Below, piece by piece: positions 307 through 11,155 of a stretch of DNA of 40,339 nucleotides. The DNA comes from a virus, in the UHGV virus genome UHGV-0008619. The stretch is one strand, 5' to 3'. The notes beneath the pieces were generated by a model, which ran no database searches, was not told the origin of the DNA, and saw only the letters and a list, made by a program, of their open reading frames with translations. Position numbers and translations under genes: made by a program. The first letter of the stretch is position 1. Each line of letters opens with the position of its first letter.

Positions 307-339
307 GTATACATTTTGTTAACTGGAGGGATTAACATT

Positions 340-1470
340 ATGTCGCAAAGAAAAATCAGCGATGAGCAATTGATCGCTGAATACAACAACGGTTTAACGT
401 ACAAACAGATTGCTGAGAAGTACGGCATGTCAAAACGCAATGTCGAGCGCCTGGGCGCAAAACTGGCAAAACGCGGTTTATTATCAACACGCCGCGCGCC
501 TGGTTTTGGCGTCAATGGCGAGTCGTTGCTAGTCGATAAAAACGGCAATGTGATCATGCGCTGGATTAAAACAGCCCGTGACCGCGACGAAATGGAACAG
601 TTAATGGAAGCGGCCCGCGACGCTTTCACGGATGAAATACCACGCGCGGAGGCTGTGCCAGTGCCTGAAATTGATTTTCAAAAAAGCCTGGCACTTTACC
701 CGGTATTTGACCTGCATATCGGGGCGCTTGCTCATAAAGCAGAATGCGGTGAGAGCTACGATACTGGGATCGCTGAGCGCGTGTTAAATGACTTCTTTGA
801 CTACGCTGTTGGCGCTGCTCCGATGTCTGAAAAAGCCGTACTGCTCCTCGGTGGCGATCTGCTTCATTCTGACGGTATGGTCCCGGTGACGCCAATAAGC
901 GGGCACATTCTTGATCAAGATAGTCGCTACGCAAAACTTGTTTATGTGGCGATCCGGTCGGTCCGGCGGGCGGTAGGGAAGATGTTGCTAAATCATAAGG
1001 ATGTGGAAATCCAGGTGTTATCAGGGAATCATGATCAGTCTGGTATGATTTGGCTACGTGCGGCGCTTGCGGCTTTTTACGAAGATGAACCGCGCGTGAC
1101 GGTTGATGTGTCACCTACTATCGTCCACCACACGCAGTACGGGAAAACATTTCTTGCTTACCACCACGGGCACACTATCAAAAAACCGGAAAATTTATTG
1201 GCTGCTTGCGTATCTGACTGGCGCGATGATTTCGGCAAGTCGAAATATGTTTACGTCCATGTCGGACATTTGCACCATAAATCAGTAACAGAATCATCTA
1301 TAGGCATAGTTGAACACCACGGCACGTTAGCGGGCAAAGACGCTTATTCAACTAATGGAGGATGGAGATCGCAACGTTGCGCTGCGGTTATCCTTTACAG
1401 TCCTGATTATGGCGAAATTGGTCGCTTTGTATATAGGCCTGAAATGGTGGGGTGTCATGATGTGGGATGA
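340..1470 (+). CDS. HTH domain fused to calcineurin-like metallophosphoesterase (possible replication initiation/nuclease protein)
   Basis: GGAGGG RBS 9 nt upstream of ATG 340; N-terminal HTH (LTYKQIAEKYGMSKRNVERL); phosphoesterase-type motifs DLHIG, GGDLLHSDG, GNHD, GHLHH; directly upstream of helicase. Confidence 0.6.
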   Translation: MSQRKISDEQLIAEYNNGLTYKQIAEKYGMSKRNVERLGAKLAKRGLLSTRRAPGFGVNGESLLVDKNGNVIMRWIKTARDRDEMEQLMEAARDAFTDEIPRAEAVPVPEIDFQKSLALYPVFDLHIGALAHKAECGESYDTGIAERVLNDFFDYAVGAAPMSEKAVLLLGGDLLHSDGMVPVTPISGHILDQDSRYAKLVYVAIRSVRRAVGKMLLNHKDVEIQVLSGNHDQSGMIWLRAALAAFYEDEPRVTVDVSPTIVHHTQYGKTFLAYHHGHTIKKPENLLAACVSDWRDDFGKSKYVYVHVGHLHHKSVTESSIGIVEHHGTLAGKDAYSTNGGWRSQRCAAVILYSPDYGEIGRFVYRPEMVGCHDVG

Positions 1471-1963
1471 TTTGTTTACATATAGCGACGGCGTTCTATA
1501 TTGGTCTTGTAACCGTGCAAATAACAAAATAAAAGCAGGTAGCGTGGCTGGATGTAAACATTATCGCGGATATTGGACTGTACGCGTTAATGGTATTTGT
1601 TGCACATGGCGTCACCGCATTATCTGGGAAATGTTTAACGGCCCTATTCCTGATGGAATGGAAATAGATCACATAAATCATGTACCTGGTGACGATAGAA
1701 TCGAAAACTTAAGGATGGTGACAAGGAAGGAGAATAACAGAAACAAAACAATGCCATCAAGTAATACTAGCGGATGCGTTGGCGTTACGTGGAACAAGAA
1801 AACCAATAAATGGCGTGCGCAAATAGGTATAAGGGGGTCTGATGGGAAAAAGAAAACAATATACGTTTATTACGGTGACTCATTTGATGATGCCGTAAAA
1901 GCAAGAAAAGAAGCTGAAAGAATGTATAACTTTCATAGCAATCACGGTATTTCTTTACCCTGA
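1457..1963 (+). CDS. HNH homing endonuclease (HNH plus AP2-like DNA-binding region)
   Basis: ATG 1457 overlaps stop of upstream gene; motifs IKAGSVAGCKH, HRIIWEMFNGPIPDGMEIDHINHVPGDDRIENLR; paralogous to 35629..36135. Confidence 0.85.
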   Translation: MMWDDLFTYSDGVLYWSCNRANNKIKAGSVAGCKHYRGYWTVRVNGICCTWRHRIIWEMFNGPIPDGMEIDHINHVPGDDRIENLRMVTRKENNRNKTMPSSNTSGCVGVTWNKKTNKWRAQIGIRGSDGKKKTIYVYYGDSFDDAVKARKEAERMYNFHSNHGISLP

Positions 1964-1997
1964 ATTTTCCATTTTGTAAACCGGAGGAAATAACATA

Positions 1998-4448
1998 ATG
2001 GTAACTGAGCAAATAAACTCACTACGGCAGGAACGTGAGGCGTCAGTTATCGGCGGGCTGCTGTTAGGCGGCCTAACTCCTAACGCGCAAGATGTTCTCG
2101 CCACGCTTGATCCTGAAGTGTTCACAATCCCGCTCTATAGACGTGCGTTTGAAGTTATCCGGGCGCAAGCCAGAAACAGGAATCTTATCGACGCGTTGCT
2201 TGTTGGCGATGAGATTGGCAATGAAAATTTCGTACCTCTAATGCAAACGGCGCGTTCGTGCCCTTCTGCTGCCAACCTGAAGGGGTACGCACAGCTACTA
2301 CGTGAAGAGCACCAGCGGCGGCAGATGTTGGAACTCATCGACGATATGCGTTACAAGCTGGAAACAGGTACGCTTGAGGTCGTCAAAGAGACGATGAAGG
2401 ATTTTGATTCCCGATATTCAAAATTAAAGGTAACGAAAGACAAGATCATTCCGGTGTTGTTGCGCGATGCGGTACAGGAATATACGGATGTTTTAAGCAA
2501 GCGCATGGAATGCGGTGTTAATTCTGACAACATCAAAACAGGTATTGACCCGCTCGATGAAATGTTAGGCGGCATTAACGCTACTGATTTGGTACTTCTC
2601 GCCGGACGCCCTGGGTCTGGTAAAGCGCTAAAAAACAGTGAAAAAATACTGCTTGAAAATGGAGAATGGACTACTCATGGCAAAGTTAAGGTTGGTGATG
2701 TCATCGCATCAATAGACGGCAAGCCCTCTGTTGTTACAGGTGTCTTTCCTCAAGGCGTTAGGGATATTTACGAAATTGAATTCGAAGACGGTAGAAAAAT
2801 TGATAGCGCTGATTGCCATTTGTGGGAAATAAGTAGTACGAAGTGGAACGCTCCACGTGTAGTCGATACTGTCGGACTTAATGATTTACTTAGCAAGGTA
2901 CGCTATCAAGGCCGTGTACATATCCCTGTTTTTGGTGGCGATTGCGGTATTGACAATAATATCGGCATTGATCCGTGGTTGCTTGGCGCTCTTATAGGTG
3001 ATGGTTGCTTATCACATAGTGGCGTAAGTATTAGCTGCGGTCAGGATTACATACTTAACCGCGTTAAACTTACTTGCTGCGATCTTGATGTTAAGCGAAT
3101 TGGTAGTAATCAATATGATTACCGCATTACTGCAAAAGGAAGAGGATGCAAAAACCATCTGATCGATGCGCTTGGTAAAATGGGGCTTTATGGTAAGCAT
3201 TCATGGGAAAAATTTATTCCGGATATTATTTATTCATCAAGTAAAAATATCAGGCTGGGCGTGCTCGTTGGGCTACTTGAAACTGATGGTTGGATTGAAA
3301 AAAAAGGGAGTTTGTATTATGCGTCATGTAGCAAATCGTTAACAAACGATGTGATTCGTCTTGCTAGATCACTTGGCGGGTGCGGGCACATGAGAGTAAA
3401 AAATAATGTTACTTTCTCATACAAGGGAGAAAAAAGAATTGGTAGGGATTCTTATATTGCGACGTTAAAACTTCCTGACTGGGTTTTAGCAAAAATAGAA
3501 CACCCTCGTCTAAAATCAAGATTACCAGAAAACAGGATGTATAAACACGGATTGCAAATTAAATCAGTTACGTTTAAAGGTAAGGAGGAATGCACATGTA
3601 TTATGGTTAGCCATGATAGTCACCTTTATATTACTTCTGACTATATCGTTACACATAATACATCTCTTGCATTAAAGATAGCTCAACAAGCTGCTATGCG
3701 CCCATATCCAGGCATGGAAGGTCAGCGGGTAGGCGTTTTGCTGTTTACGCTTGAAATGTCACTCGATCAGATGACTGAGCGTGCTATAGCTGGCGCTGGC
3801 AATTTATCAACTGACTGCCTGCGCAATCCGGTAAAACTTGATGATGAGGGGTGGGCGCATGTCGGCCAGGGTATGAGCGCACTTGCTAATCTTGATGTGT
3901 GGATCGTTGACGCGTCGCAGTTAACGGTTGAGGAAATACGCGCAACAACGGAACGCATGAAACAGGATCACCCAAATTTGGGTATGGTAATGATTGACTA
4001 TATCGGTTTAATGAAGCTGGCTAAAGCCGAACGTCACGATCTCGCCGTGGGGCAATTATCGTGGTCGTTAAAGATGATGGCGAAAGAATTGCGCGTACCA
4101 GTGTTGGCACTGGCGCAATTATCACGCCGAGTTGAGGAACGACCGAACAAGCGCCCTAACAATTCTGATCTTCGTGATTCTGGCAACCTTGAGCAAGATG
4201 CCGACAGGATCATCATGGTTTACCGCGATGGGTATTACGACGAACAGTCTGTTGCCCGCGAATATATGGAAATCATTGTGTCAAAAAACCGTCATGGTAA
4301 GTCTGGAACTGTTTACCAGCGGTTTGATGACAACGGTAATATCTTGCCATGCGACCAGGCTCGCGCAGCCGCCGCGTGTATTCAGTCAATGAATCATCGC
4401 ACAAGCCGTTTTAACCAACGAAACAATCAGAATAACACATCTTTTTAA
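1998..4448 (+). CDS. DnaB-like replicative helicase, intein-containing
   Basis: GGAGG RBS; Walker A GRPGSGK interrupted and resumed as TSLALKIA; downstream helicase motifs FTLEMS, DYIGLM, NRHGKSG; 816 aa because of a 345 aa insertion. Confidence 0.9.
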   Translation: MVTEQINSLRQEREASVIGGLLLGGLTPNAQDVLATLDPEVFTIPLYRRAFEVIRAQARNRNLIDALLVGDEIGNENFVPLMQTARSCPSAANLKGYAQLLREEHQRRQMLELIDDMRYKLETGTLEVVKETMKDFDSRYSKLKVTKDKIIPVLLRDAVQEYTDVLSKRMECGVNSDNIKTGIDPLDEMLGGINATDLVLLAGRPGSGKALKNSEKILLENGEWTTHGKVKVGDVIASIDGKPSVVTGVFPQGVRDIYEIEFEDGRKIDSADCHLWEISSTKWNAPRVVDTVGLNDLLSKVRYQGRVHIPVFGGDCGIDNNIGIDPWLLGALIGDGCLSHSGVSISCGQDYILNRVKLTCCDLDVKRIGSNQYDYRITAKGRGCKNHLIDALGKMGLYGKHSWEKFIPDIIYSSSKNIRLGVLVGLLETDGWIEKKGSLYYASCSKSLTNDVIRLARSLGGCGHMRVKNNVTFSYKGEKRIGRDSYIATLKLPDWVLAKIEHPRLKSRLPENRMYKHGLQIKSVTFKGKEECTCIMVSHDSHLYITSDYIVTHNTSLALKIAQQAAMRPYPGMEGQRVGVLLFTLEMSLDQMTERAIAGAGNLSTDCLRNPVKLDDEGWAHVGQGMSALANLDVWIVDASQLTVEEIRATTERMKQDHPNLGMVMIDYIGLMKLAKAERHDLAVGQLSWSLKMMAKELRVPVLALAQLSRRVEERPNKRPNNSDLRDSGNLEQDADRIIMVYRDGYYDEQSVAREYMEIIVSKNRHGKSGTVYQRFDDNGNILPCDQARAAAACIQSMNHRTSRFNQRNNQNNTSF
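2625..3659 (+). mobile_element. Intein with LAGLIDADG homing endonuclease domain inserted in helicase P-loop
   Basis: Insertion between GSGK and T of Walker A; two LAGLIDADG-type motifs (LLGALIGDGCL, LVGLLETDGWI); ends THN followed by Thr +1; starts with Ala not Cys/Ser. Confidence 0.8.
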
Positions 4449-4524
4449 TTAATCTGAGCAAACGGCTTACCGGAAAGTTTACCGCTTTCTGGTGGCTGTT
4501 ATCGCGTTTTAAACGAGGCTAAAA

Positions 4525-5082
4525 ATGAGCGCTGAAATTGAAACAAAAATTATCAATATCCTTGAACTTGATGGCATCGCAACAATGCACCAGTTACGCC
4601 AGAAAACAGGGTTATTGGCTTGGTATGATAAGGACGGAATCATGCCTGAGACAATTAAACACTTAATAAAAAACGGCATCGTCGAGCGCGTGTATACATG
4701 TTTTGGACGCCGCCGCCGCCTGCTGGGTTATCGCATTAAACAGTTATATGCTGAACGTCGTGAGCGTGTTGCGTCGTTATTTGGTGACTACAGCGTTAAA
4801 AAACGTATGCGCGACATTAGCGCTGAAACGGGAATACCGTGGAATTATCTTTCTCGTACTATGCGTTTAATGGTGATTGATGAAACGCTTTGCGTTGATC
4901 CAAATAGACACGGGGTTAATTTTTACTCACTGTTTAAACCTGGGCGATTCGGTCACGCCAATGATCTGGCGTTTGACTTTGATAGCCGCCTGAACGAATA
5001 CCGGAAAAATAATGGCTTGTTGCCGGATAAACCAGTATTTGAAATAGAAAAACTTAACGGTGAAACGGGGTTGGAATTATGA
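4525..5082 (+). CDS. hypothetical protein
   Basis: 185 aa ORF with GAGG RBS upstream of ATG 4525; no recognisable motif. Confidence 0.55.
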   Translation: MSAEIETKIINILELDGIATMHQLRQKTGLLAWYDKDGIMPETIKHLIKNGIVERVYTCFGRRRRLLGYRIKQLYAERRERVASLFGDYSVKKRMRDISAETGIPWNYLSRTMRLMVIDETLCVDPNRHGVNFYSLFKPGRFGHANDLAFDFDSRLNEYRKNNGLLPDKPVFEIEKLNGETGLEL

Positions 5083-5285
5083 GACGGGTAATATTCTATT
5101 CAGTTGAAACGTTTGTTGACAATACGCGTGTTTATTATCCGTGGGAAGTATACGACGCAATGGTTTATACACCGCCACTGATGCGGAAGTATAAACACGT
5201 AAAATTTAACCGGGTTTTTGTGCCAATGCGCGATGCACTGCGGGCGCTGCGTGGGGAATTACGAAACACAATGCGGATTGTGTAA
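5079..5285 (+). CDS. hypothetical protein
   Basis: 68 aa ORF, start overlaps stop of upstream gene (ATGA coupling). Confidence 0.45.
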   Translation: MRRVIFYSVETFVDNTRVYYPWEVYDAMVYTPPLMRKYKHVKFNRVFVPMRDALRALRGELRNTMRIV

Positions 5286-5295
5286 GGGGTAAGTC

Positions 5296-5523
5296 ATGAA
5301 CAAGGAATTAGATTTAACCGTGGAGGATTTGAGCACGATTGCGGAATACATGCGCGGCGGCGATCCTGATAAGCCTGTCACGGTTGATATAAAATATTTA
5401 AAAGGCGCTTTTATGACTTCTTCGAGATTGGTAAGTCTTGATGCAATTATAAAAGCGCGCTGGGAAAGTTGGCAGGAATATAAAGCGAAAAATAAGGCAA
5501 AAAGAAATAATGCGGCAAATTAG
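5296..5523 (+). CDS. hypothetical protein
   Basis: 75 aa ORF in compact + strand operon. Confidence 0.45.
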   Translation: MNKELDLTVEDLSTIAEYMRGGDPDKPVTVDIKYLKGAFMTSSRLVSLDAIIKARWESWQEYKAKNKAKRNNAAN

Positions 5524-5962
5524 ATTTGAAATAGTAAACGACGCCGTAAAAGAAAACGCTATCAGGCAGATAAGGGAAATCCATCCTGATGACAAAAGCC
5601 CGCTGATAATTACCATCCAGGAGAAAACACGATCACTGAGTCAAAACAGCCTTTTATGGGCGCTATTAACAGACGTTAGCGATCAGGTTAATTGGTACGG
5701 TAAAAAGCTGTCACCGGAAGACTGGAAGGCGGTATTCACTGCCGGGCTTAAGAAATATGGCGTTGTCCCTAATCTGGATAAATCAGGTTTTGTTGTGCTG
5801 GGTACGTCAACCAGCCGGATGAGTAAAGCAGAATTTAGCGAATTAATCGAACTGATCTACTCGTTCGGTGCGGAACATGGTGTTCAGTGGTCTGGCGATA
5901 CGAAGTTAAACGAGGAATTTATAAAACGCTGGGGCAATAATGGTTCGTTATTACATGGCTAA
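5510..5962 (+). CDS. ninB: NinB/Orf-family recombination protein
   Basis: Protein MRQIRFEIVNDAVKENAIRQIREIHPDD...ITIQEKTRSLSQNSLLWALLTDVS matches the lambda NinB N-terminus pattern recalled from memory. Confidence 0.8.
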   Translation: MRQIRFEIVNDAVKENAIRQIREIHPDDKSPLIITIQEKTRSLSQNSLLWALLTDVSDQVNWYGKKLSPEDWKAVFTAGLKKYGVVPNLDKSGFVVLGTSTSRMSKAEFSELIELIYSFGAEHGVQWSGDTKLNEEFIKRWGNNGSLLHG

Positions 5963-6116
5963 ACCTACAGGCATTTTATACAAGATTGATGGCGAATACG
6001 TTTACTATTTTCACAACCAGGCGCGTGATTGGCGGTTGTGTCACGCGCACTTTAAGCACGAAATAGAAAATCACCCTGAATATTTTATCAAAGTTGACAA
6101 TGTAACTGTGGCGTAA
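5940..6116 (+). CDS. small hypothetical protein (58 aa, below ORF-track cutoff)
   Basis: ATG 5940 (or 5955) to TAA 6114-6116, fills gap between ninB and next gene. Confidence 0.3.
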   Translation: MVRYYMAKPTGILYKIDGEYVYYFHNQARDWRLCHAHFKHEIENHPEYFIKVDNVTVA

Positions 6117-6130
6117 TTGAGGATAAGCAA

Positions 6131-6790
6131 ATGAATAAACTTAAAGCAATTGGCGTGATTAGCCATCGCACTAACCCTGAGTGTTACCCATCGTTTGAGG
6201 TAACAACATGCCGCACGGAATATAATTTTGGATCATGCTATTTAGTTGGTGTCCGCGCTGATACTCGCGGCACTTATTCAGTTATGGCGTCAAGCTGGAA
6301 ATTTGATAAATACGCTAATTTATCGAATAAGGATGATGACGGCATGAATAAAGAAAGTGAGATCATTGATGAATTAATCGAAGATGAGCGGCATGATTGC
6401 GATAAACCGGAAGTTACAGAATGGAAGGCAGGAGAAAAGCCGCCGTGCGGAGTGTGGCTTGATTGCATTGGATCAAGAAGCGATATAGTGATTGATGTCG
6501 TTAAGTTTTTCTACCTGGGCGATAACTGGTCTATTGCTCACAGTAAGTTAGAAACTGTTATTGAAACACCAATTGCATGGAAACAATACTCGTACCGCAT
6601 TCACATTGACCCGAAAGAAAAAGCACTGGCGGAAATTGCGTTTGCGCTGGCTACTAAGGTGATTGGTGAAGATGCGGCAAAAGAAATTAATTTTAACCGC
6701 GACAACGAATTTTCATGCGATTATCGCAACATGGCGCAAGCTATTATCGACGGATGTATCGGACACGTTGAATACACGGGGGATAAATAA
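6131..6790 (+). CDS. hypothetical protein
   Basis: 219 aa ORF, GAGGAT RBS upstream of ATG 6131. Confidence 0.55.
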   Translation: MNKLKAIGVISHRTNPECYPSFEVTTCRTEYNFGSCYLVGVRADTRGTYSVMASSWKFDKYANLSNKDDDGMNKESEIIDELIEDERHDCDKPEVTEWKAGEKPPCGVWLDCIGSRSDIVIDVVKFFYLGDNWSIAHSKLETVIETPIAWKQYSYRIHIDPKEKALAEIAFALATKVIGEDAAKEINFNRDNEFSCDYRNMAQAIIDGCIGHVEYTGDK

Positions 6791-7020
6791 TGGATAAGAT
6801 CGGGACAATTCTTCTTAGTCGCCCTGCCATCTGCCGGATGCTGGGCGGAATTAGCAGGGGGACGTTTTATTTATGGCGTAAAAAGTGGGAGGAAAACGGA
6901 ACCCCATTCCCGGCCCCGGTTGATGTATTGGGGACCGGGCGGGGCGTCATGTACCGCTATCAAGAGGTGATGCGGTTCTTTGATAAGATCGGATTAACGC
7001 CAGCCAGAGATAAGACGTAA
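6790..7020 (+). CDS. excisionase-like / AlpA-type HTH DNA-binding protein
   Basis: 76 aa, small basic HTH protein (GGISRGTFYLWRKKWEENGTPFPAPV); convergent with and overlapping 3' end of integrase. Confidence 0.6.
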   Translation: MDKIGTILLSRPAICRMLGGISRGTFYLWRKKWEENGTPFPAPVDVLGTGRGVMYRYQEVMRFFDKIGLTPARDKT

Positions 7021-8174
7021 TCCGCAAATTTATTTAACGCCTCCTTTTGTTCATCAAGATAATCATATTTGTCGTACACCGCCAGTATTCCCCTGAGTGA
7101 ATGGCCTAAGATCTTTTCCGCGATATGTACCGGAACACCTATAGCTGAAAGGTGTGTCCGGCACGTCCTGCGGAGGTCGTGACAGGACCATGATTTACCG
7201 CCCATCCTTTTACGCACGAAGATTGCGGCTACTTTTATCACTGATGCGTTTACTGGCCTGTTACCGCCGTTAATCACTGGCGGGAACACATAATCATACT
7301 CATGGGAGGCTAATACCTCCCTGAGCATTTTTATCGACAAATCTGATAATCCCCGCCTGATTTCACTTCTTGTCTTCGCCACTGCCGCCGGGACGGTCCA
7401 TACCCCGTTATCCAGGTCGAGGTGTTCCCTTCTCATTTTCTGCAACTCCCCCACCCTGCACCCAGTTAGCAATAATAGCCTTAATGCTATCTTGTTTTGA
7501 CGGTAGATCTGCGAATCATCCACCGTTCGCCAGAAATGGCCTATTTCATCGCATGATAAATAACGCTCGCCAACCGCATAATTTTCGCCAACGTCAATAA
7601 CCCTGATATTGTTTATCGCTGTACTGGTCATCAACCCGCGCCGGATAGCGCTGTTCACAACAATCTTCATTCGCTTAAGTATCAGGCCAGCCGTAACCGC
7701 GTGCCCAGCCGCAGTGATCTCGCCGAATATGTCCATCCATTGTTTCGTACTGACATCATCGGCAATATACTCACCGAATTTATCGACAACATGGCGCTTA
7801 AGCGCGCTCCTGACGTCATTATATGCAACCAGCTTAATAACGTTAGGCAGGGATAAATAGTCACTCACAATGGCGCTTATTGTTAATTTGCCACGCTCAA
7901 TATCTATCGCTTGCTTTACTGAAACAGTCGGGTTCTTCCCCTTCGCTAACAGCTCTTTGTATTCTGCCACCGCGTAGCGTGCATCTTTCAATGTCATTCT
8001 GCCGTAATCGCCGATCTTCATCCTCACGGGCTTACCGTTGAACCTGTACCGGAACTGGAAAACAATTTTCCCCTTCGGGCTTATCCTGGCAGACAAGCCA
8101 TCGCGATCTGCTATCTCGTTCGGGCCGTCATACGGCTTGTTTGCTATTGCGCGTAATTTAGTATCCGTCAGCAT
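6960..8174 (-). CDS. int: tyrosine integrase (P4-like)
   Basis: 404 aa; N-terminal arm-binding type region, C-terminal catalytic region with HDLRRT...GH..Y-type residues; strong RBS AAAGAGGTG before ATG 8174. Confidence 0.9.
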   Translation of the reverse strand: MLTDTKLRAIANKPYDGPNEIADRDGLSARISPKGKIVFQFRYRFNGKPVRMKIGDYGRMTLKDARYAVAEYKELLAKGKNPTVSVKQAIDIERGKLTISAIVSDYLSLPNVIKLVAYNDVRSALKRHVVDKFGEYIADDVSTKQWMDIFGEITAAGHAVTAGLILKRMKIVVNSAIRRGLMTSTAINNIRVIDVGENYAVGERYLSCDEIGHFWRTVDDSQIYRQNKIALRLLLLTGCRVGELQKMRREHLDLDNGVWTVPAAVAKTRSEIRRGLSDLSIKMLREVLASHEYDYVFPPVINGGNRPVNASVIKVAAIFVRKRMGGKSWSCHDLRRTCRTHLSAIGVPVHIAEKILGHSLRGILAVYDKYDYLDEQKEALNKFADYVLSLAGVNPILSKNRITS

Positions 8175-8189
8175 TATGACACCTCTTTT

Positions 8190-8211
8190 TTGGTCACGAT
8201 TTGGTACACAA
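8190..8211. repeat. 22-bp direct repeat copy 1 (TTGGTCACGATTTGGTACACAA), candidate integrase arm/att site
   Basis: 21/22 identical to copy at 8431..8452; internally a tandem of TTGGT(C/A)AC half-sites; immediately upstream of int. Confidence 0.5.
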
Positions 8212-8430
8212 TTTTATCTGAACGGATATTAACATCATCGAACGGATTAAAACACATCTGCGGAAGATTGATGTGTAACTTAGTGAATTTAAATGATATT
8301 TTTTATCATCCATCAACCAGTCTGAACGCAACTAAACACTATGAATCGTTACTGTCTGGAATGATTATCACTGTGAATAATCATTTATAAAACAGTGTGT
8401 TGCATTGATTTTGTTTTTGGTTTTGGATAT

Positions 8431-8452
8431 TTGGTCACAATTTGGTACACAA
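8431..8452. repeat. 22-bp direct repeat copy 2 (TTGGTCACAATTTGGTACACAA)
   Basis: Direct repeat of 8190..8211, 241 bp away in same intergenic region. Confidence 0.5.
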
Positions 8453-8479
8453 AAAGAAACGAGGCGTTAGCCTCGTTTC
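8449..8479 (-). terminator. rho-independent terminator after tail fibre gene
   Basis: Hairpin AAACGAGGC-GTTA-GCCTCGTTT followed on - strand by T-run (CTTTTTGTG). Confidence 0.6.
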
Positions 8480-8508
8480 GCGCGGCGATGTTCTTCGCAC
8501 ATCACCTA

Positions 8509-9861
8509 TTATTTTTCGCTTCCGGTCAACTGACTGACAAGCGCTTCAAGTTTTGCGATCCTCTCATCCATTGCGGCAATGTTGTCGCGCAGGCTTGCGT
8601 TCTCCTCTTCCAGTTCGGTGACGCGGTTATCTGTTTCGCGTGCCACCTGGACAAGTAAACCAGTCACCGCCGCATAGTCAACATTGAGGTAACGAGTTTC
8701 CTCGCGTAGCTCGTTGCCGTCAATGGTCGGGCCTTGCAATGCTTTACCGTAATGAGTAAACGATCCTACAGCCTCCGGCAGCGCCTCCATGACCTCCTGA
8801 GCGATAACGCCAGCGTAAGGCAGGCCGTTTTCCTTAAGGGTATAAGTGTACCCGTTCATTTTACGGACGGCTTCAGTTGCATCACCTATAACCTGAATGT
8901 TGTCTTTCAGGTCGCGGTCAGATGATTGGTTGATTGTAGTACAATTTACCACTCCGTTAACAGCTAATAGCACCGTTTCATCACTATTAACCTGACACTG
9001 ATATAGTAGTTTGTGAGTTGTTTCCGTGCCAACTACTAATGTTTTAAATTCGAGAGCTGAAGGTGAGGACTCTGAACCCCACAGCGTTATCGCGCAATCG
9101 TTAGCAGGACTATTTGCTGCCATCACCCTTATTTTTCTTGACCGATCATCAGAGTGGAAATGAGTATTAGTGGTATGCGTTTCTTTTGCATTTAAAACGC
9201 CATCAATAGCAACGTCACCGAATGTGGTAGAATCACCGGATTTTAATTGTTTTACCCATCTCGTTCCTGTTTCTGTGACATAGTTGTAACAATACAGTGA
9301 TTTGGTGGTGTGCCCAACAAAAACGCCTAAGTATGCTTTAATTCCACTACCATTATCACTTGCCTGTGCGATCCAGCCAGTTAAACACCATTCCCCTGAT
9401 GCTATTGAGGGGAAACCTGTCGCTGTATCAAGAATGCGAGTAAAGCCGACATAATTTGACGGATCGCCGGAAATGTTAGGACAATCTCTGTAAGTTTTGC
9501 CAAGACCTATCTTGTCTCCGATATGGTTCTGGCTCCATTCAAGCGCCTCCGATACTGCCGTTTCCTTACTCTGATAGTAGCGCAATGTTTCGGCTACATC
9601 CTGAGCAAGCCCATCAACTGAGATGGAATCAGATAACAGAATACTAAATTTTGTCCCGGCAGGGATGTCAGGATTAGACGATGGCGTTACTGATAATTCA
9701 GTACCGCTCTTGATTTCTGTGATGGTAAAAATCTGAATAGGATCGCTAACGGCAATGAGCGTGCACCCTTCCCGGATGAGCGAAAGCGGCGCGGTGAAGT
9801 TTGTCCCTGTGCCTGTAACAGTGTTACCGCTAATGGCTATTGTTCCTGCTGTATAAATCAT
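8509..9861 (-). CDS. tail fibre/tailspike with C-terminal intramolecular chaperone (peptidase S74-like) domain
   Basis: 450 aa; C-terminal region DRDLKDNIQVIGDATEAVRKMNGYTYTLKENG...YLNVDYAAVTGLLVQVARE plus terminal coiled coil typical of self-cleaving fibre chaperone. Confidence 0.8.
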   Translation of the reverse strand: MIYTAGTIAISGNTVTGTGTNFTAPLSLIREGCTLIAVSDPIQIFTITEIKSGTELSVTPSSNPDIPAGTKFSILLSDSISVDGLAQDVAETLRYYQSKETAVSEALEWSQNHIGDKIGLGKTYRDCPNISGDPSNYVGFTRILDTATGFPSIASGEWCLTGWIAQASDNGSGIKAYLGVFVGHTTKSLYCYNYVTETGTRWVKQLKSGDSTTFGDVAIDGVLNAKETHTTNTHFHSDDRSRKIRVMAANSPANDCAITLWGSESSPSALEFKTLVVGTETTHKLLYQCQVNSDETVLLAVNGVVNCTTINQSSDRDLKDNIQVIGDATEAVRKMNGYTYTLKENGLPYAGVIAQEVMEALPEAVGSFTHYGKALQGPTIDGNELREETRYLNVDYAAVTGLLVQVARETDNRVTELEEENASLRDNIAAMDERIAKLEALVSQLTGSEK

Positions 9862-9998: not shown

Positions 9999-10220
9999 AT
10001 GAGAATGTTTTGTGTTATTGCGGTTGCTATATTGATGCTTTCCGGGTGCGCTGAAGTTGTAAGACATGATGGATACTGCGCAACTAGTGCTTATGGTGTC
10101 TGCTATGAAAGATGGGTTAACGGGGTTAAGATTCCATCTGGTGAGATCTGCCGCGTTTATGATGGCACTGATGGCCATAGTGGGAAAACAAAAGATTGCG
10201 GTAGTAAGGAGTGGTTTTGA
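9999..10220 (+). CDS. small lipoprotein, candidate Cor/Llp-like superinfection-exclusion protein
   Basis: 73 aa; signal peptide with lipobox LSGC (MRMFCVIAVAILMLSGC); opposite strand to flanking tail genes. Confidence 0.6.
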   Translation: MRMFCVIAVAILMLSGCAEVVRHDGYCATSAYGVCYERWVNGVKIPSGEICRVYDGTDGHSGKTKDCGSKEWF

Positions 10221-11155
10221 TGGGTGCTGGTATTTATATTGCGCTACCAGATGGCAGGCCAGCTATGGAGATAACGAGCGGATTAAGAGCTTTCTCCCAT
10301 TCGGGCGATTTTAATGTTAGCTCAGCTGGATTTTCAAAAAGTTTTGGTATAACTGATTTAACTGGAGGGGATAAGTTTTTAATCCCAAAAGCTGGCGCTT
10401 ACGCTTTTGAGCTTGATAGGGGCGTAGAGACTTATTATATTTCTGGTTTTAGCGCTTCTGGTGGCACAGCCACAATATCAATAGGTGGCGAGAACGCTTA
10501 TTCCGACAGGATCACTTCGTTTAGTGGTAGTGTTTTTGAGATAGCAAGAGCTTCAAGTGGTCAGGGCATTTTTGTTGCTGATAGCACTGATTTCACGTCT
10601 TTGACCACTAACAGTACACTAATGTCGTGCTTGTTTGTCGCTAATATTAGCTTTCATGGGACTTATACCCTGCCTGTTTTGGGAGTTCCCTTTGGTTGTT
10701 GGAGCAATGACGGCGTATCTGTTGAATTTGACGGTTATAACACATTAATATGCACAAACACCAATACTTCTGATGTTGGCGACACTTACGGTAGTGTTAA
10801 TATGGATCTTGCCATATTTAGTAATTCACCGCCAACCCCCGGCGATGGTGTAACCATTATAAATCCTTACGGGCAATGCGTATTTTCTACATCACAAAGG
10901 CCGCTTGTTGTTAAGGGTTTTGTGAGTTTGACAGATACCTATCAATACATCGGTGATGCGTTTTTTCCTATACTTCGCTGCGGTTTCAACACAAGAGCTA
11001 TTTCTGCATACAAAGAATTGAGATACAAGGGGATTTCAATGTTTAATGGGCATGTTAGAGGTAACACAGGATCAAGAATTGTTAGGTATGAAATAGGTAA
11101 TAAACCGAATTTCTGTATAGGGATGCCACTGCCTTATTTACCACGAATTTACTAG
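10220..11155 (+). CDS. hypothetical Gly/Ser/Thr-rich protein, translationally coupled to lipoprotein
   Basis: ATG 10220 overlaps lipoprotein stop (TGATG); AAGGAG RBS; 311 aa, low charge, beta-rich composition, no signal peptide. Confidence 0.55.
   Translation: MGAGIYIALPDGRPAMEITSGLRAFSHSGDFNVSSAGFSKSFGITDLTGGDKFLIPKAGAYAFELDRGVETYYISGFSASGGTATISIGGENAYSDRITSFSGSVFEIARASSGQGIFVADSTDFTSLTTNSTLMSCLFVANISFHGTYTLPVLGVPFGCWSNDGVSVEFDGYNTLICTNTNTSDVGDTYGSVNMDLAIFSNSPPTPGDGVTIINPYGQCVFSTSQRPLVVKGFVSLTDTYQYIGDAFFPILRCGFNTRAISAYKELRYKGISMFNGHVRGNTGSRIVRYEIGNKPNFCIGMPLPYLPRIY

Follow-up and report, generated by a model that had tools for sequence, protein, structure and literature searches.

A probable site-specific recombination module with an unintegrated attP in an mEp021-like temperate coliphage

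The region from 6790 to 8508 of the virus genome UHGV-0008619, analysed here as a single stretch of 40,339 nucleotides (the window), combines an integrase gene with a small HTH gene and a repeat-rich gap, which raises the question of whether the gap is an attachment site, where recombination would take place within it and which protein would use which repeat. The analyses indicated that this region is very probably the module with which a temperate mEp021-like (mEpimmI) coliphage carries out site-specific recombination, present here in its circular/virion (unintegrated) form.

The integrase gene, its neighbours and the gap

The genes and signals that delimit the region are the following:

6790-7020, plus strand: HTH ORF of 76 amino acids, the candidate recombination directionality factor (RDF; ORF list)
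6897-6918, minus strand: terminator-like hairpin (pattern scan only)
6960-8174, minus strand: integrase gene int, 404 amino acids (ORF list)
8180-8187, minus strand: Shine-Dalgarno of int, AAGAGGTG on the minus strand, 5 nt upstream of the ATG (direct reading)
8456-8479, minus strand: intrinsic terminator of the late (tail-fibre) operon, a 10-bp perfect stem plus T-run
8509-9861, minus strand: tail-fibre gene with a Peptidase_S74 C-terminal chaperone domain (Pfam), the right-hand limit of attP

A sequence-only reading had described a P4-type tyrosine integrase with a convergent, overlapping HTH gene, followed by a 334-bp non-coding gap. The ORF list and the Pfam domains agreed with this description: int and the HTH ORF are convergent and share 61 nt, and the gap between int and the tail-fibre gene spans 8175-8508, as given by direct reading and the ORF list. 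The hairpin at 6897-6918 lies 42 nt past the int stop codon, within the RDF gene on the opposite strand, and the terminator at 8456-8479 is annotated as such in mEp010, mEp013 and mEp044. The GC content of the att region is 36% as compared to 46% for the window, and a scan for known RNA families returned a sub-threshold snoRNA (E 0.9) as its sole match.

Domain searches of Int revealed an N-terminal Arm-DNA-bind_3/DUF4102 domain (PF13356, E 1.8e-20, residues 2-88), which also matched PDB 3jtz, a 'CP4-like integrase' (E 1.9e-7), and a Phage_integrase catalytic domain (PF00589, E 4.9e-21) carrying, by motif, the signature R240, H332-x-x-R335, H358 and Y367. By sequence, Int is thus a tyrosine integrase of the P4/CP4-57 type. 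Integration at a tRNA/tmRNA 3' end, typical of this type and not obligatory, is absent here.

The attachment site and its crossover in dgcM

The 334-bp region was matched in 33 of 5,426 E. coli genomes, and none of the matches covered at least 80% of it. Each covered either positions 3-186 or positions 178 to about 333 of the region, which places the break at 8352-8360. No E. coli chromosome among the 5,426 contained the gap intact; lysogens hold its two halves separately, and 8175-8508 is a real, unintegrated attP, as had been proposed in preference to a prophage end. The features around the break are as follows:

8252-8276, no strand assigned: ACACATC-N11-GATGTGT inverted repeat, halves at 8252-8258 and 8270-8276 (repeat finder)
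8344-8368, no strand assigned: core, formed by AATCGTTA (candidate C), the crossover identity CTGTCTGGA at 8352-8360 and AATGATTAT (candidate C')
8377-8385, no strand assigned: ATAATCATT, a perfect inverted partner of 8360-8368, kept in all ydaM-type attP sites
8405-8429, plus strand: T-rich tract before the P' sites, kept in all types (alignment)

The core was placed from the lysogen junctions, the K-12 attB and the starts of the mEp021, mEp515 and mEp554 GenBank records, which are linearised exactly at window position 8360. Junctions were read directly in N921, where the int side is joined to the body of dgcM, and in MLI107; both prophage ends, about 54 kb apart, were read in Ecol_244, and the empty attB was read in K-12. 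The host match that had been sought between the repeats was therefore found, as CTGTCTGGA is the same 9 nt as codons 15-17 of dgcM/ydaM, while the identity with attB is 12 nt in the sister subtype. The target is thus not a tRNA: the tRNA 3' end suggested earlier gave way to junctions in the 5' coding region of dgcM, the host matches being to dgcM and ARAGORN finding no tRNA in the window.

The core flanks AATCGTT and AATGATT are inverted at 6 of 7 positions around the 9-nt spacer, and they would correspond to the C and C' sites; in the sister subtype the left core half-site differs. The T-rich tract is possibly intrinsically bent DNA. A core does exist in the gap, as the sequence-only reading had supposed, but the actual one, CTGTCTGGA, was not on its list. 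The 7-bp inverted repeat that it offered instead is present and was rejected as core: its place is in the P arm, some 80-100 bp away from the crossover, and close relatives do not share it, as it is missing in a phage with a 99% identical Int (L010), in the N921 lysogen and in the other subtype.

Sequence comparison identified the phage as a member of the published mEpimmI group: its int, HTH gene and P arm are 93.5% identical in nucleotide sequence to those of mEp021, mEp515 and mEp554. For mEp021, PCR confirmed insertion at the 5' end of ydaM/dgcM (PMC11893012), and its locus has the same CTGTCTGGA crossover and gene order as the window, of which the tail-fibre side is closer to other mEpimmI members. 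In this group, integrase types track insertion sites and the N-terminal domain is kept between types (PMC11893012, Front Microbiol 2025). Int and the integrase of mEp010, which has abgT specificity, are 72% identical over residues 1-80 and 22-42% identical over residues 81-200. The stretch from 6821 to 8400, with RDF, int and attP, forms a cassette that is exchanged as a whole, its flanks being 88% and 93% identical. The text of PMC11893012 does not use attP, arm-type, direct repeat, excisionase or Xis as terms, and thus gives no description of the arm dyads, of the R repeats or of the RDF candidate presented below.

Candidate arm-type sites on both arms

Two tandem pairs flank the crossover:

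8189-8211, plus strand: P-arm tandem, P1 TTTGGTCACGA at 8189-8199 and P2 TTTGGTACACAA at 8200-8211 (repeat finder, exact string positions)
8430-8452, plus strand: P'-arm tandem, P'1 TTTGGTCACAA at 8430-8440 and P'2 TTTGGTACACAA at 8441-8452 (repeats, alignment)

These pairs contain the two 22-bp direct repeats reported earlier (8190-8211 and 8431-8452), which were recovered with 21 of 22 positions identical, or 22 of 23 when started at 8189 and 8430. The P' pair is in direct orientation to P1/P2, 241 bp from start to start. Within each pair, the half-sites TTTGGTCAC and TTTGGTACAC are 11 bp apart from start to start and differ by a one-base insertion; the earlier account of tandem half-sites was right as to the tandem but not as to a C/A substitution between them, as TTTGGTMAC matches the first half-sites only. 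The TTTGGT-N5-TTTGGT dyad occurs at only these two places in 40 kb, and a repeat of 22/23 within 334 bp cannot be due to chance, since it is conserved across relatives. Phages of three att specificities have both pairs in unchanged form, while the P arm around them cannot be aligned.

In IMG/VR, scans for TTTGGTCAC-NN-TTTGGTACAC returned nothing but mEpimmI-type contigs and, in metagenomes, mEpimmI-type matches with a single stray (L088). Where a match was not a lone copy at the end of a prophage, it formed a pair with a spacing of 241 or 231-232 nt, and two assemblies lacked exactly the segment between the dyads, an apparent deletion of 231 bp of attP. A protein search with the Int N-terminal domain retrieved mostly short gene fragments, three of which gave usable upstream regions. 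For independent Arm-DNA-bind_3 integrases, tandem TTGGTACAC or TATGTACAC pairs stood immediately before the int gene; one relative (L021) had a further pair about 260 nt away and so carried pairs on both arms. As the dyads are unchanged across specificities and recur upstream of independent Arm-DNA-bind_3 integrase genes, they are best read, from these comparisons with related phages, as arm-type integrase sites, the role first proposed for the 22-bp repeats. The conservation of the P' pair could be partly due to its overlap with the conserved tail-fibre terminator block. A literature search combining the motif with 'arm-type' found no paper.

It is very unlikely that the dyads are mainly int operators or parts of the terminator region and dispensable for assembly of the recombination complex. 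The P pair lies 15 nt before the int ATG, a place at which protein binding would obstruct transcription or translation, the T-run of the 8456-8479 terminator overlaps the P' pair at P'2, and the arm sites of KplE1 do serve as operators. Regulation leaves unexplained, however, why every att type has a second identical pair beyond the crossover, at a fixed distance of 231-241 bp, and why pairs stand on both arms in the L021 relative. One role does not preclude the other, and the dyads are expected to serve in both. In the prophage, int is preceded by no more phage DNA than the 177-bp P arm, so that the int promoter would have to overlap the arm sites; negative autoregulation would follow from this overlap, as shown for KplE1 intS. 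In the P arm, a consensus scan gave no convincing sigma-70 promoter from which int could be read. The sole match on the int strand (-35 at 8391-8386, -10 at 8369-8364) was rejected as it is on the P' side of the crossover, the wrong side; mEp021 does not share its -10, and the total number of matches equalled the shuffled expectation.

Replication iterons or the scar of a small inserted element with target duplication might also leave an AT-rich gap with direct repeats of about 22 bp, and the two assemblies without exactly the inter-repeat segment would be in line with this. Both readings are extremely improbable: the dyads number only two, the segment between them is wholly different between att types while the repeats are the same, and the replication genes are far off at 316-4448. 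That segment also holds the sequence that recombines with dgcM in 33 genomes, and both readings are contradicted by the lysogen junctions, the iteron or origin one being rejected.

The 21-nt dyad was also found as four exact matches in 185,579 species genomes. About four are expected by chance, but at random positions, while all four stood no more than about 150 nt from the 5' end of an integrase gene of the DUF6538 type or of a remnant of one. Three of them, in marine Alphaproteobacteria, are placed and oriented with respect to int as the dyad in the window is, and two of these three have a tRNA 3' fragment about 100 nt past the motif. One DUF6538 integrase with an upstream dyad is encoded on the Robiginitomaculum contig JAJFFP010000073.1. 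The N-terminal domain of the window's Int did not match DUF6538 integrases (BLASTP E > 3; hhalign probability 0.1%, with shallow profiles), and no relatives of the alphaproteobacterial integrase were found in IMG/VR. A one-to-one link between the motif and Arm-DNA-bind_3 does not fully account for these data, since the motif precedes DUF6538 integrases too. We tentatively consider, as a possibility short of an even chance, that TTTGGTCAC-NN-TTTGGTACAC is part of a wide arm-site code read by integrases without detectable mutual similarity; if so, integrase families would share their arm-site specificity, through conservation or convergence, and the location of arm sites would become predictable from sequence.

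The candidate excisionase and the place of the module among known systems

The 76-aa HTH protein is basic (pI 10), with a predicted winged-helix fold. Its gene is the last of the plus-strand early operon, its ATG overlapping the upstream stop codon (TAATG), and in every att type it abuts and overlaps int. On the P arm, a family of repeats was found:

8219-8234, plus strand: R1 TGAACGGATATTAACA, candidate RDF-binding repeat
8239-8254, plus strand: R2 CGAACGGATTAAAACA, candidate RDF-binding repeat 20 bp from R1
8323-8338, plus strand: R3 TGAACGCAACTAAACA, third R copy, 14 nt from the crossover identity

The direct repeat pair GAACGGAT noticed in the sequence-only reading is present at 8220-8227 and 8240-8247, but it is part of this three-member family of 15-16 nt, and the repeats are more likely excisionase sites than the integrase sites then supposed. 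The family consensus GAACG-N5-WAACA has three matches in the 40-kb window, all of them on the P arm, and the position of R1/R2 is kept in the other ydaM subtype as TTGTACGGA. In the type II attP, a different repeat family occupies the R positions and the HTH protein is only 45% identical. Since the repeats change together with an HTH protein of excisionase-like fold, they are probably excisionase sites.

The 'excisionase-like' label given earlier to this protein was supported by the predicted fold but not by Pfam. Both fold searches were topped by an AlpA-family excisionase, with RdfS, Xis, TorI and Cox also listed; against the curated excisionase and AlpA models, Pfam gave only the generic HTH_23, together with HTH_28 and HTH_29, NCBIfam gave nothing, PHROG 4745 is a 'DNA binding protein', and there was no sequence match in the PDB. 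These generic assignments would suit a protein that regulates transcription, either of the early operon or of int; the repeats would then have another binder, for instance a host protein that bends DNA or a second DNA-binding surface of Int. MerR and MarR regulators and small terminase domains match the fold at similar scores, and the RDF, the Int core-binding domain and the R repeats lie in one swapped cassette, so that co-variation cannot assign the binder. A regulator is nonetheless unlikely, given the leading fold matches and the constant position of the gene next to int. A motif that differs from type to type cannot be accounted for by the Int N-terminal domain, which is conserved, and the repeats occur on the P arm only, between arm sites and core. 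Lambda Xis sites are likewise on the P arm, between arm sites and core. From its modelled fold and gene position, the 76-aa protein is the probable excisionase.

In the proposed mechanism, Int would be heterobivalent, its N-terminal Arm-DNA-bind_3 domain binding the tandem TTTGGTCAC-NN-TTTGGTACAC pairs at 8189-8211 and 8430-8452 and its core-binding and catalytic domains binding the imperfect inverted sites around CTGTCTGGA. The folded attP would capture attB through the identical 9 nt, and strands would be exchanged inside this identity. After integration, the first 52 nt of dgcM and its promoter would adjoin the tail-fibre end of the prophage, while int and the P arm would adjoin the rest of dgcM, now without a start codon. 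The 76-aa protein would be made on induction, because its gene ends the early operon, and would bind the three GAACG-N5-WAACA repeats and bend the P arm, turning Int towards excision. Here we infer the exact overlap region, which protein binds which repeat, the autoregulation of int, and the loss of dgcM function. No match to the IHF consensus WATCAANNNNTTR with at most one mismatch was found in 8175-8508 and the window-wide count equalled chance, which leaves the means of arm bending unexplained.

This arrangement resembles lambda in its presumably heterobivalent integrase, in candidate arm-type sites that stand in tandem on each arm at a spacing of about one helical turn, in accessory repeats only on the P arm between arm sites and core, and in a short attB identity. 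Lambda P'1 is GGTCACTAT, which resembles TTGGTCACTAT of type II and the P' copies here. Several features set it apart from lambda: the arm-binding domain falls into another Pfam family, int reads away from attP towards a convergent RDF gene where lambda has a xis-int operon, the search for IHF sites gave no consensus match, and the target is inside coding sequence. As in the IntS/TorI system of KplE1 (CPS-53), int adjoins the att site, its promoter would have to be inside the arm region, RDF and int are not co-transcribed, and Int and the RDF are predicted to repress int; KplE1 is the precedent for int autoregulation from an att-embedded promoter (PMC2951348, PLoS Genet 2010). KplE1 differs in that it targets the tRNA argW, its arm sites share a TAAA motif and torI is at the other prophage end, whereas the RDF gene here overlaps the int 3' end. 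With P4/CP4-57 integrases, Int shares the architecture of Arm-DNA-bind_3 plus catalytic domain and the match to 3jtz, and the RDF candidate has the small winged-helix fold of AlpA-family excisionases such as the GIsul2 excisionase (8c3t) and RdfS (8dgl). Unlike those systems, it has no tRNA/tmRNA target and its RDF candidate fails the AlpA and excisionase sequence models.

The module is ordinary and essentially already described, in lambda/P4 textbook style, and the insertion site of the phage group is already published; the basic finding adds little, and what is new is a finer map of likely protein-binding sites. This map supplies targets for EMSA and mutagenesis, namely the two arm dyads, the three putative excisionase sites, the 9-nt crossover and the 1.6-kb cassette. 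The cassette would account for the switching of mEpimmI phages among ydaM, abgT and other sites with the same arm sites and Int N-terminal domain. Integration strips dgcM of its promoter, ribosome-binding site and first 17 codons. This gene encodes a diguanylate cyclase linked to the expression of curli fimbriae (PMC11893012), and lysogeny by mEpimmI phages, which are common in the gut, probably alters biofilm behaviour.

Gene layout and the crossover site in dgcM

Early genes occupy plus-strand positions 316-7020 and include a NinB homologue; late genes run on the minus strand from ~37,000 down to 8509 and code, among others, for the tail fibre and a J-like tail protein. The gap between int and the tail-fibre gene is therefore flanked by phage genes on either side, at the meeting point of the convergent early and late transcription units. 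All the genes and repeats listed in the sequence-only reading were recovered at their coordinates, including a GAACGGAT pair and an ACACATC/GATGTGT inverted repeat.

Features of the integration region
6790-7020, plus strand: HTH ORF, 76 aa; convergent with int, 61-nt overlap
6960-8174, minus strand: int, tyrosine integrase of 404 aa
8175-8508: 334-bp gap between int and the tail-fibre gene
8189-8211 and 8430-8452: direct repeats (dyads) of the P (int side) and P' (tail-fibre side) arms
8219-8234, 8239-8254 and 8323-8338: repeats R1, R2 and R3
8509-9861, minus strand: tail-fibre gene, Peptidase_S74 domain

Over 6790-8360 the window shares 93.5% identity with the left ends of phages mEp021, mEp515 and mEp554, and the first base of their GenBank records corresponds exactly to window position 8360. 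The three phages belong to the mEpimmI group, most members of which are inserted in the 5' end of ydaM (now dgcM), an insertion confirmed by PCR for mEp021 (PMC11893012). Between the tail-fibre and J genes, both on the minus strand, a plus-strand insert of two genes was also observed at 9999-11155; the first product (73 aa) has a lipoprotein signal (LSGC lipobox) and the second (314 aa) matches PHROG 1265 (moron, membrane protein), and these may be the superinfection-exclusion lipoproteins that have been noted in the mEpimmI group.

Of 5,426 complete E. coli genomes, 33 matched the 334-bp gap; every match covered less than 80% of the gap and spanned either its positions 3-186 or 178 to ~333. 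In strain N921 the int side continues into the body of dgcM. The tail-fibre side is joined in MLI107 and Ecol_244 to the initial 52 nt of dgcM, beyond which zntB follows; ~54 kb separate the two junctions of Ecol_244. This splitting of the gap in lysogens supports the proposal that the window carries a non-integrated, phage-form attP. The host match that had been suggested between the repeats was found in dgcM: attB of empty K-12 reads ...CTCACCAGTC CTGTCTGGA TCGTTTCG... and the window attP ...GAATCGTTA CTGTCTGGA ATGATTATC..., the common block being 8352-8360, or nt 44-52 (codons 15-17) of dgcM. In a sister subtype, a second ydaM-targeting attP type, the identity extends to 12 nt (GTCCTGTCTGGA). 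The identity thus falls inside dgcM, not in a tRNA, named in the sequence-only reading as a frequent target of P4-type integrases, and no tRNA was found anywhere in the 40-kb window. AATCGTT and AATGATT form an inverted pair (6/7) around the crossover identity and are candidate core-type sites. The 7-bp inverted repeat, previously listed among plausible arm-type and core sites, was rejected as a core or conserved element: it lies ~80-100 bp from the crossover, and neither the sister subtype, N921 nor L010 (a stretch with a 99% identical Int) has it.

In the MLI107 genome (NZ_CP116987.1) the tail-fibre-side junction is of ydaM type, the P' arm being fused to the initial 52 nt of dgcM. The prophage of this genome has been placed under type II (mEp010-like) integrases, with more than 7 kb deleted at the insertion region (PMC11893012), which points to a rearrangement between adjacent att sites.

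Arm dyads and the integrase N-terminal domain

The two 22-bp repeats are identical at 21 of 22 positions, or 22 of 23 once extended to 8189 and 8430. The half-sites had been described as differing by a C/A substitution; instead, an inserted base separates TTTGGTCAC from TTTGGTACAC (11 bp start to start). The attP sites of mEp021 and of mEp010 (type II integrase, abgT target) were rebuilt and aligned with phage-form attP sites from IMG/VR. Both dyads were unchanged in every aligned attP, and that of the mEp010 P arm stands isolated in otherwise unalignable sequence. The integrases of the window and mEp010 are 72% identical over residues 1-80 and only 22-42% over residues 81-200. Since dyads and N-terminal domain are both kept while core and other domains both change, the conserved arm sites pair with the conserved arm-binding domain, and the changed core accompanies changed core-binding and catalytic domains. 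According to the mEpimmI study, integrase sequence types follow insertion sites, with the N-terminal domain conserved throughout (PMC11893012).

An exact-pattern scan for TTTGGTCAC-NN-TTTGGTACAC returned 37 stretches in IMG/VR, all mEpimmI-like, and 29 in metagenomes, all mEpimmI-like except one (L088). The dyads occurred as pairs 241 nt (ydaM types) or 231-232 nt (type II) apart, and otherwise as single copies at prophage ends; contig OWZY01000097 has the same dyads with a further integrase type and different host flanks. Among independent Arm-DNA-bind_3 integrases, TTTGGTACACGATTTGGTACACAA and TTGGTACACGAGTTGGTACACAA lie directly upstream of int in L099 and L096 (N-terminal domains 62% and 58% identical, respectively), and tandem TATGTACAC units occur in L098, L021 and L022, with a second pair ~260 nt away in L021. 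On the basis of this conservation across att types, the scans and the independent integrases, the dyads are read as candidate arm-type sites for the Int N-terminal domain.

In one genome per species, the same motif gave four exact matches (L063 4101-4121, L064 5520-5540, L065 6215-6235, L066 6898-6918), against a chance expectation of ~4 (19 fixed bases in 596 Gb). In all four cases an integrase ORF of DUF6538 type, or what remains of one, has its 5' end no more than ~150 nt away. Three, from marine alphaproteobacterial MAGs (Robiginitomaculum, Parvularculaceae, Marinicaulis), lie directly upstream of the integrase gene, match the window in where they stand and how they are oriented with respect to int, and include a third GGTACAC unit; that of L066 ('Proteobacteria bacterium' MAG) adjoins an integrase remnant. 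A tRNA 3' fragment was found ~100 nt past the motif in L064 and L065. These matches strengthen the motif-integrase link in general. Similarity between DUF6538-type integrases and the window Int was not detectable by sequence, and the matches cannot be explained by simply assigning the motif to one domain family.

The sister ydaM subtype (L013, L015-L018, L008) has a fifth arm-like unit, TTTGGTTACAA, in mid P arm, equivalent to window 8266-8280, where the window has a degenerate ATTGATGTGTAAC at the place of the right arm of the 7-bp inverted repeat. Two type II mEpimmI assemblies lack the 231 bp between the dyads, attP core included: in L039 (IMGVR_UViG_3300045988_076816, ~10830-10900) the int start codon is followed by one 22-bp dyad copy and directly by the tail-fibre terminator, and the 51,636-bp human-gut contig OPFM01000024 (L052 and L079) has the same single-dyad arrangement. 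The loss looks like recombination between direct repeats, and an assembly artefact is possible; recombination, if true, would leave these phages unable to integrate.

Specificity cassette and the candidate excisionase

DNA identity between the window and mEp010 was 88% up to 6821, 30 nt into the HTH gene, where it falls to little or none, and 93% from 8401 onward, just before the P' dyad. Between these positions, alignment was possible only for the N-terminal part of int together with the P dyad (68%) and for a short C-terminal segment. The loss and return of identity thus delimit the candidate excisionase gene, int and attP as a 1.6-kb exchangeable specificity cassette; one of its recombination boundaries could be provided by the arm dyads, which are retained.

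The HTH protein is basic (pI 10), and curated sequence models of it returned HTH_23 only. The ATG of its gene overlaps the stop codon of the early gene upstream, and the gene overlaps the int 3' end in every att type. It lies inside the swapped cassette, its product being only 45% identical to the mEp010 counterpart. GAACGGAT proved to be the centre of a three-copy family, GAACG-N5-WAACA, with only three matches in the 40-kb window (8220, 8240 and 8324), on one strand and on the P arm only: a pair 20 bp apart beside the arm dyad and a third copy at 14 nt from the core. In the sister subtype these R repeats are retained as TTGTACGGA-type, and in type II attP another family (GACACGATAGAA-like) occupies their places. 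Because the conserved Int N-terminal domain cannot account for a motif that varies between types, the most likely binder of the R repeats is the excisionase-like HTH protein, an assignment that we consider fairly probable.

Expression of int and the fate of dgcM in lysogens

A strong terminator at 8456-8479 separates int from the late operon, and in the prophage the phage DNA upstream of int is the 177-bp P arm only. Since Int is needed for excision, the int promoter would lie among the candidate arm and R sites. The same layout is known from KplE1 intS, whose promoter lies among att sites with negative autoregulation by Int and the recombination directionality factor (RDF; PMC2951348); here it is proposed from sequence. 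The promoter was not located by consensus search and no IHF consensus was found in the att region, and both are gaps in the model. Pattern matching also returned terminator-like hairpins at 6897-6918 (minus strand), antisense within the candidate RDF gene a short way past the int stop codon, and at 8121-8139 (plus strand), antisense within the int 5' end, which might restrict read-through of the converging early operon and int into one another.

In lysogens, the hybrid dgcM lacks an ATG, a ribosome-binding site and a promoter, and an in-frame stop stands immediately 5' of the junction. In N921 (L001 3170-4366) and Ecol_244 (L008 8464-9645) RefSeq gives the truncated gene an ATC 'start' at the prophage junction, apparently an artefact of annotation by homology. 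With these signals and the first 17 codons lost and a stop before the junction, dgcM is probably inactivated; ydaM has been linked to curli fimbriae (PMC11893012).

The sequence-only reading was right in outline, with core, target and inverted repeat now corrected. The mEpimmI paper mentions no attP, arm-type sites, direct repeats or excisionase (PMC11893012). The locus is an ordinary heterobivalent-integrase attP of an already described phage group, to which the arm dyads, the probable RDF with its sites and the specificity-cassette boundaries are new.
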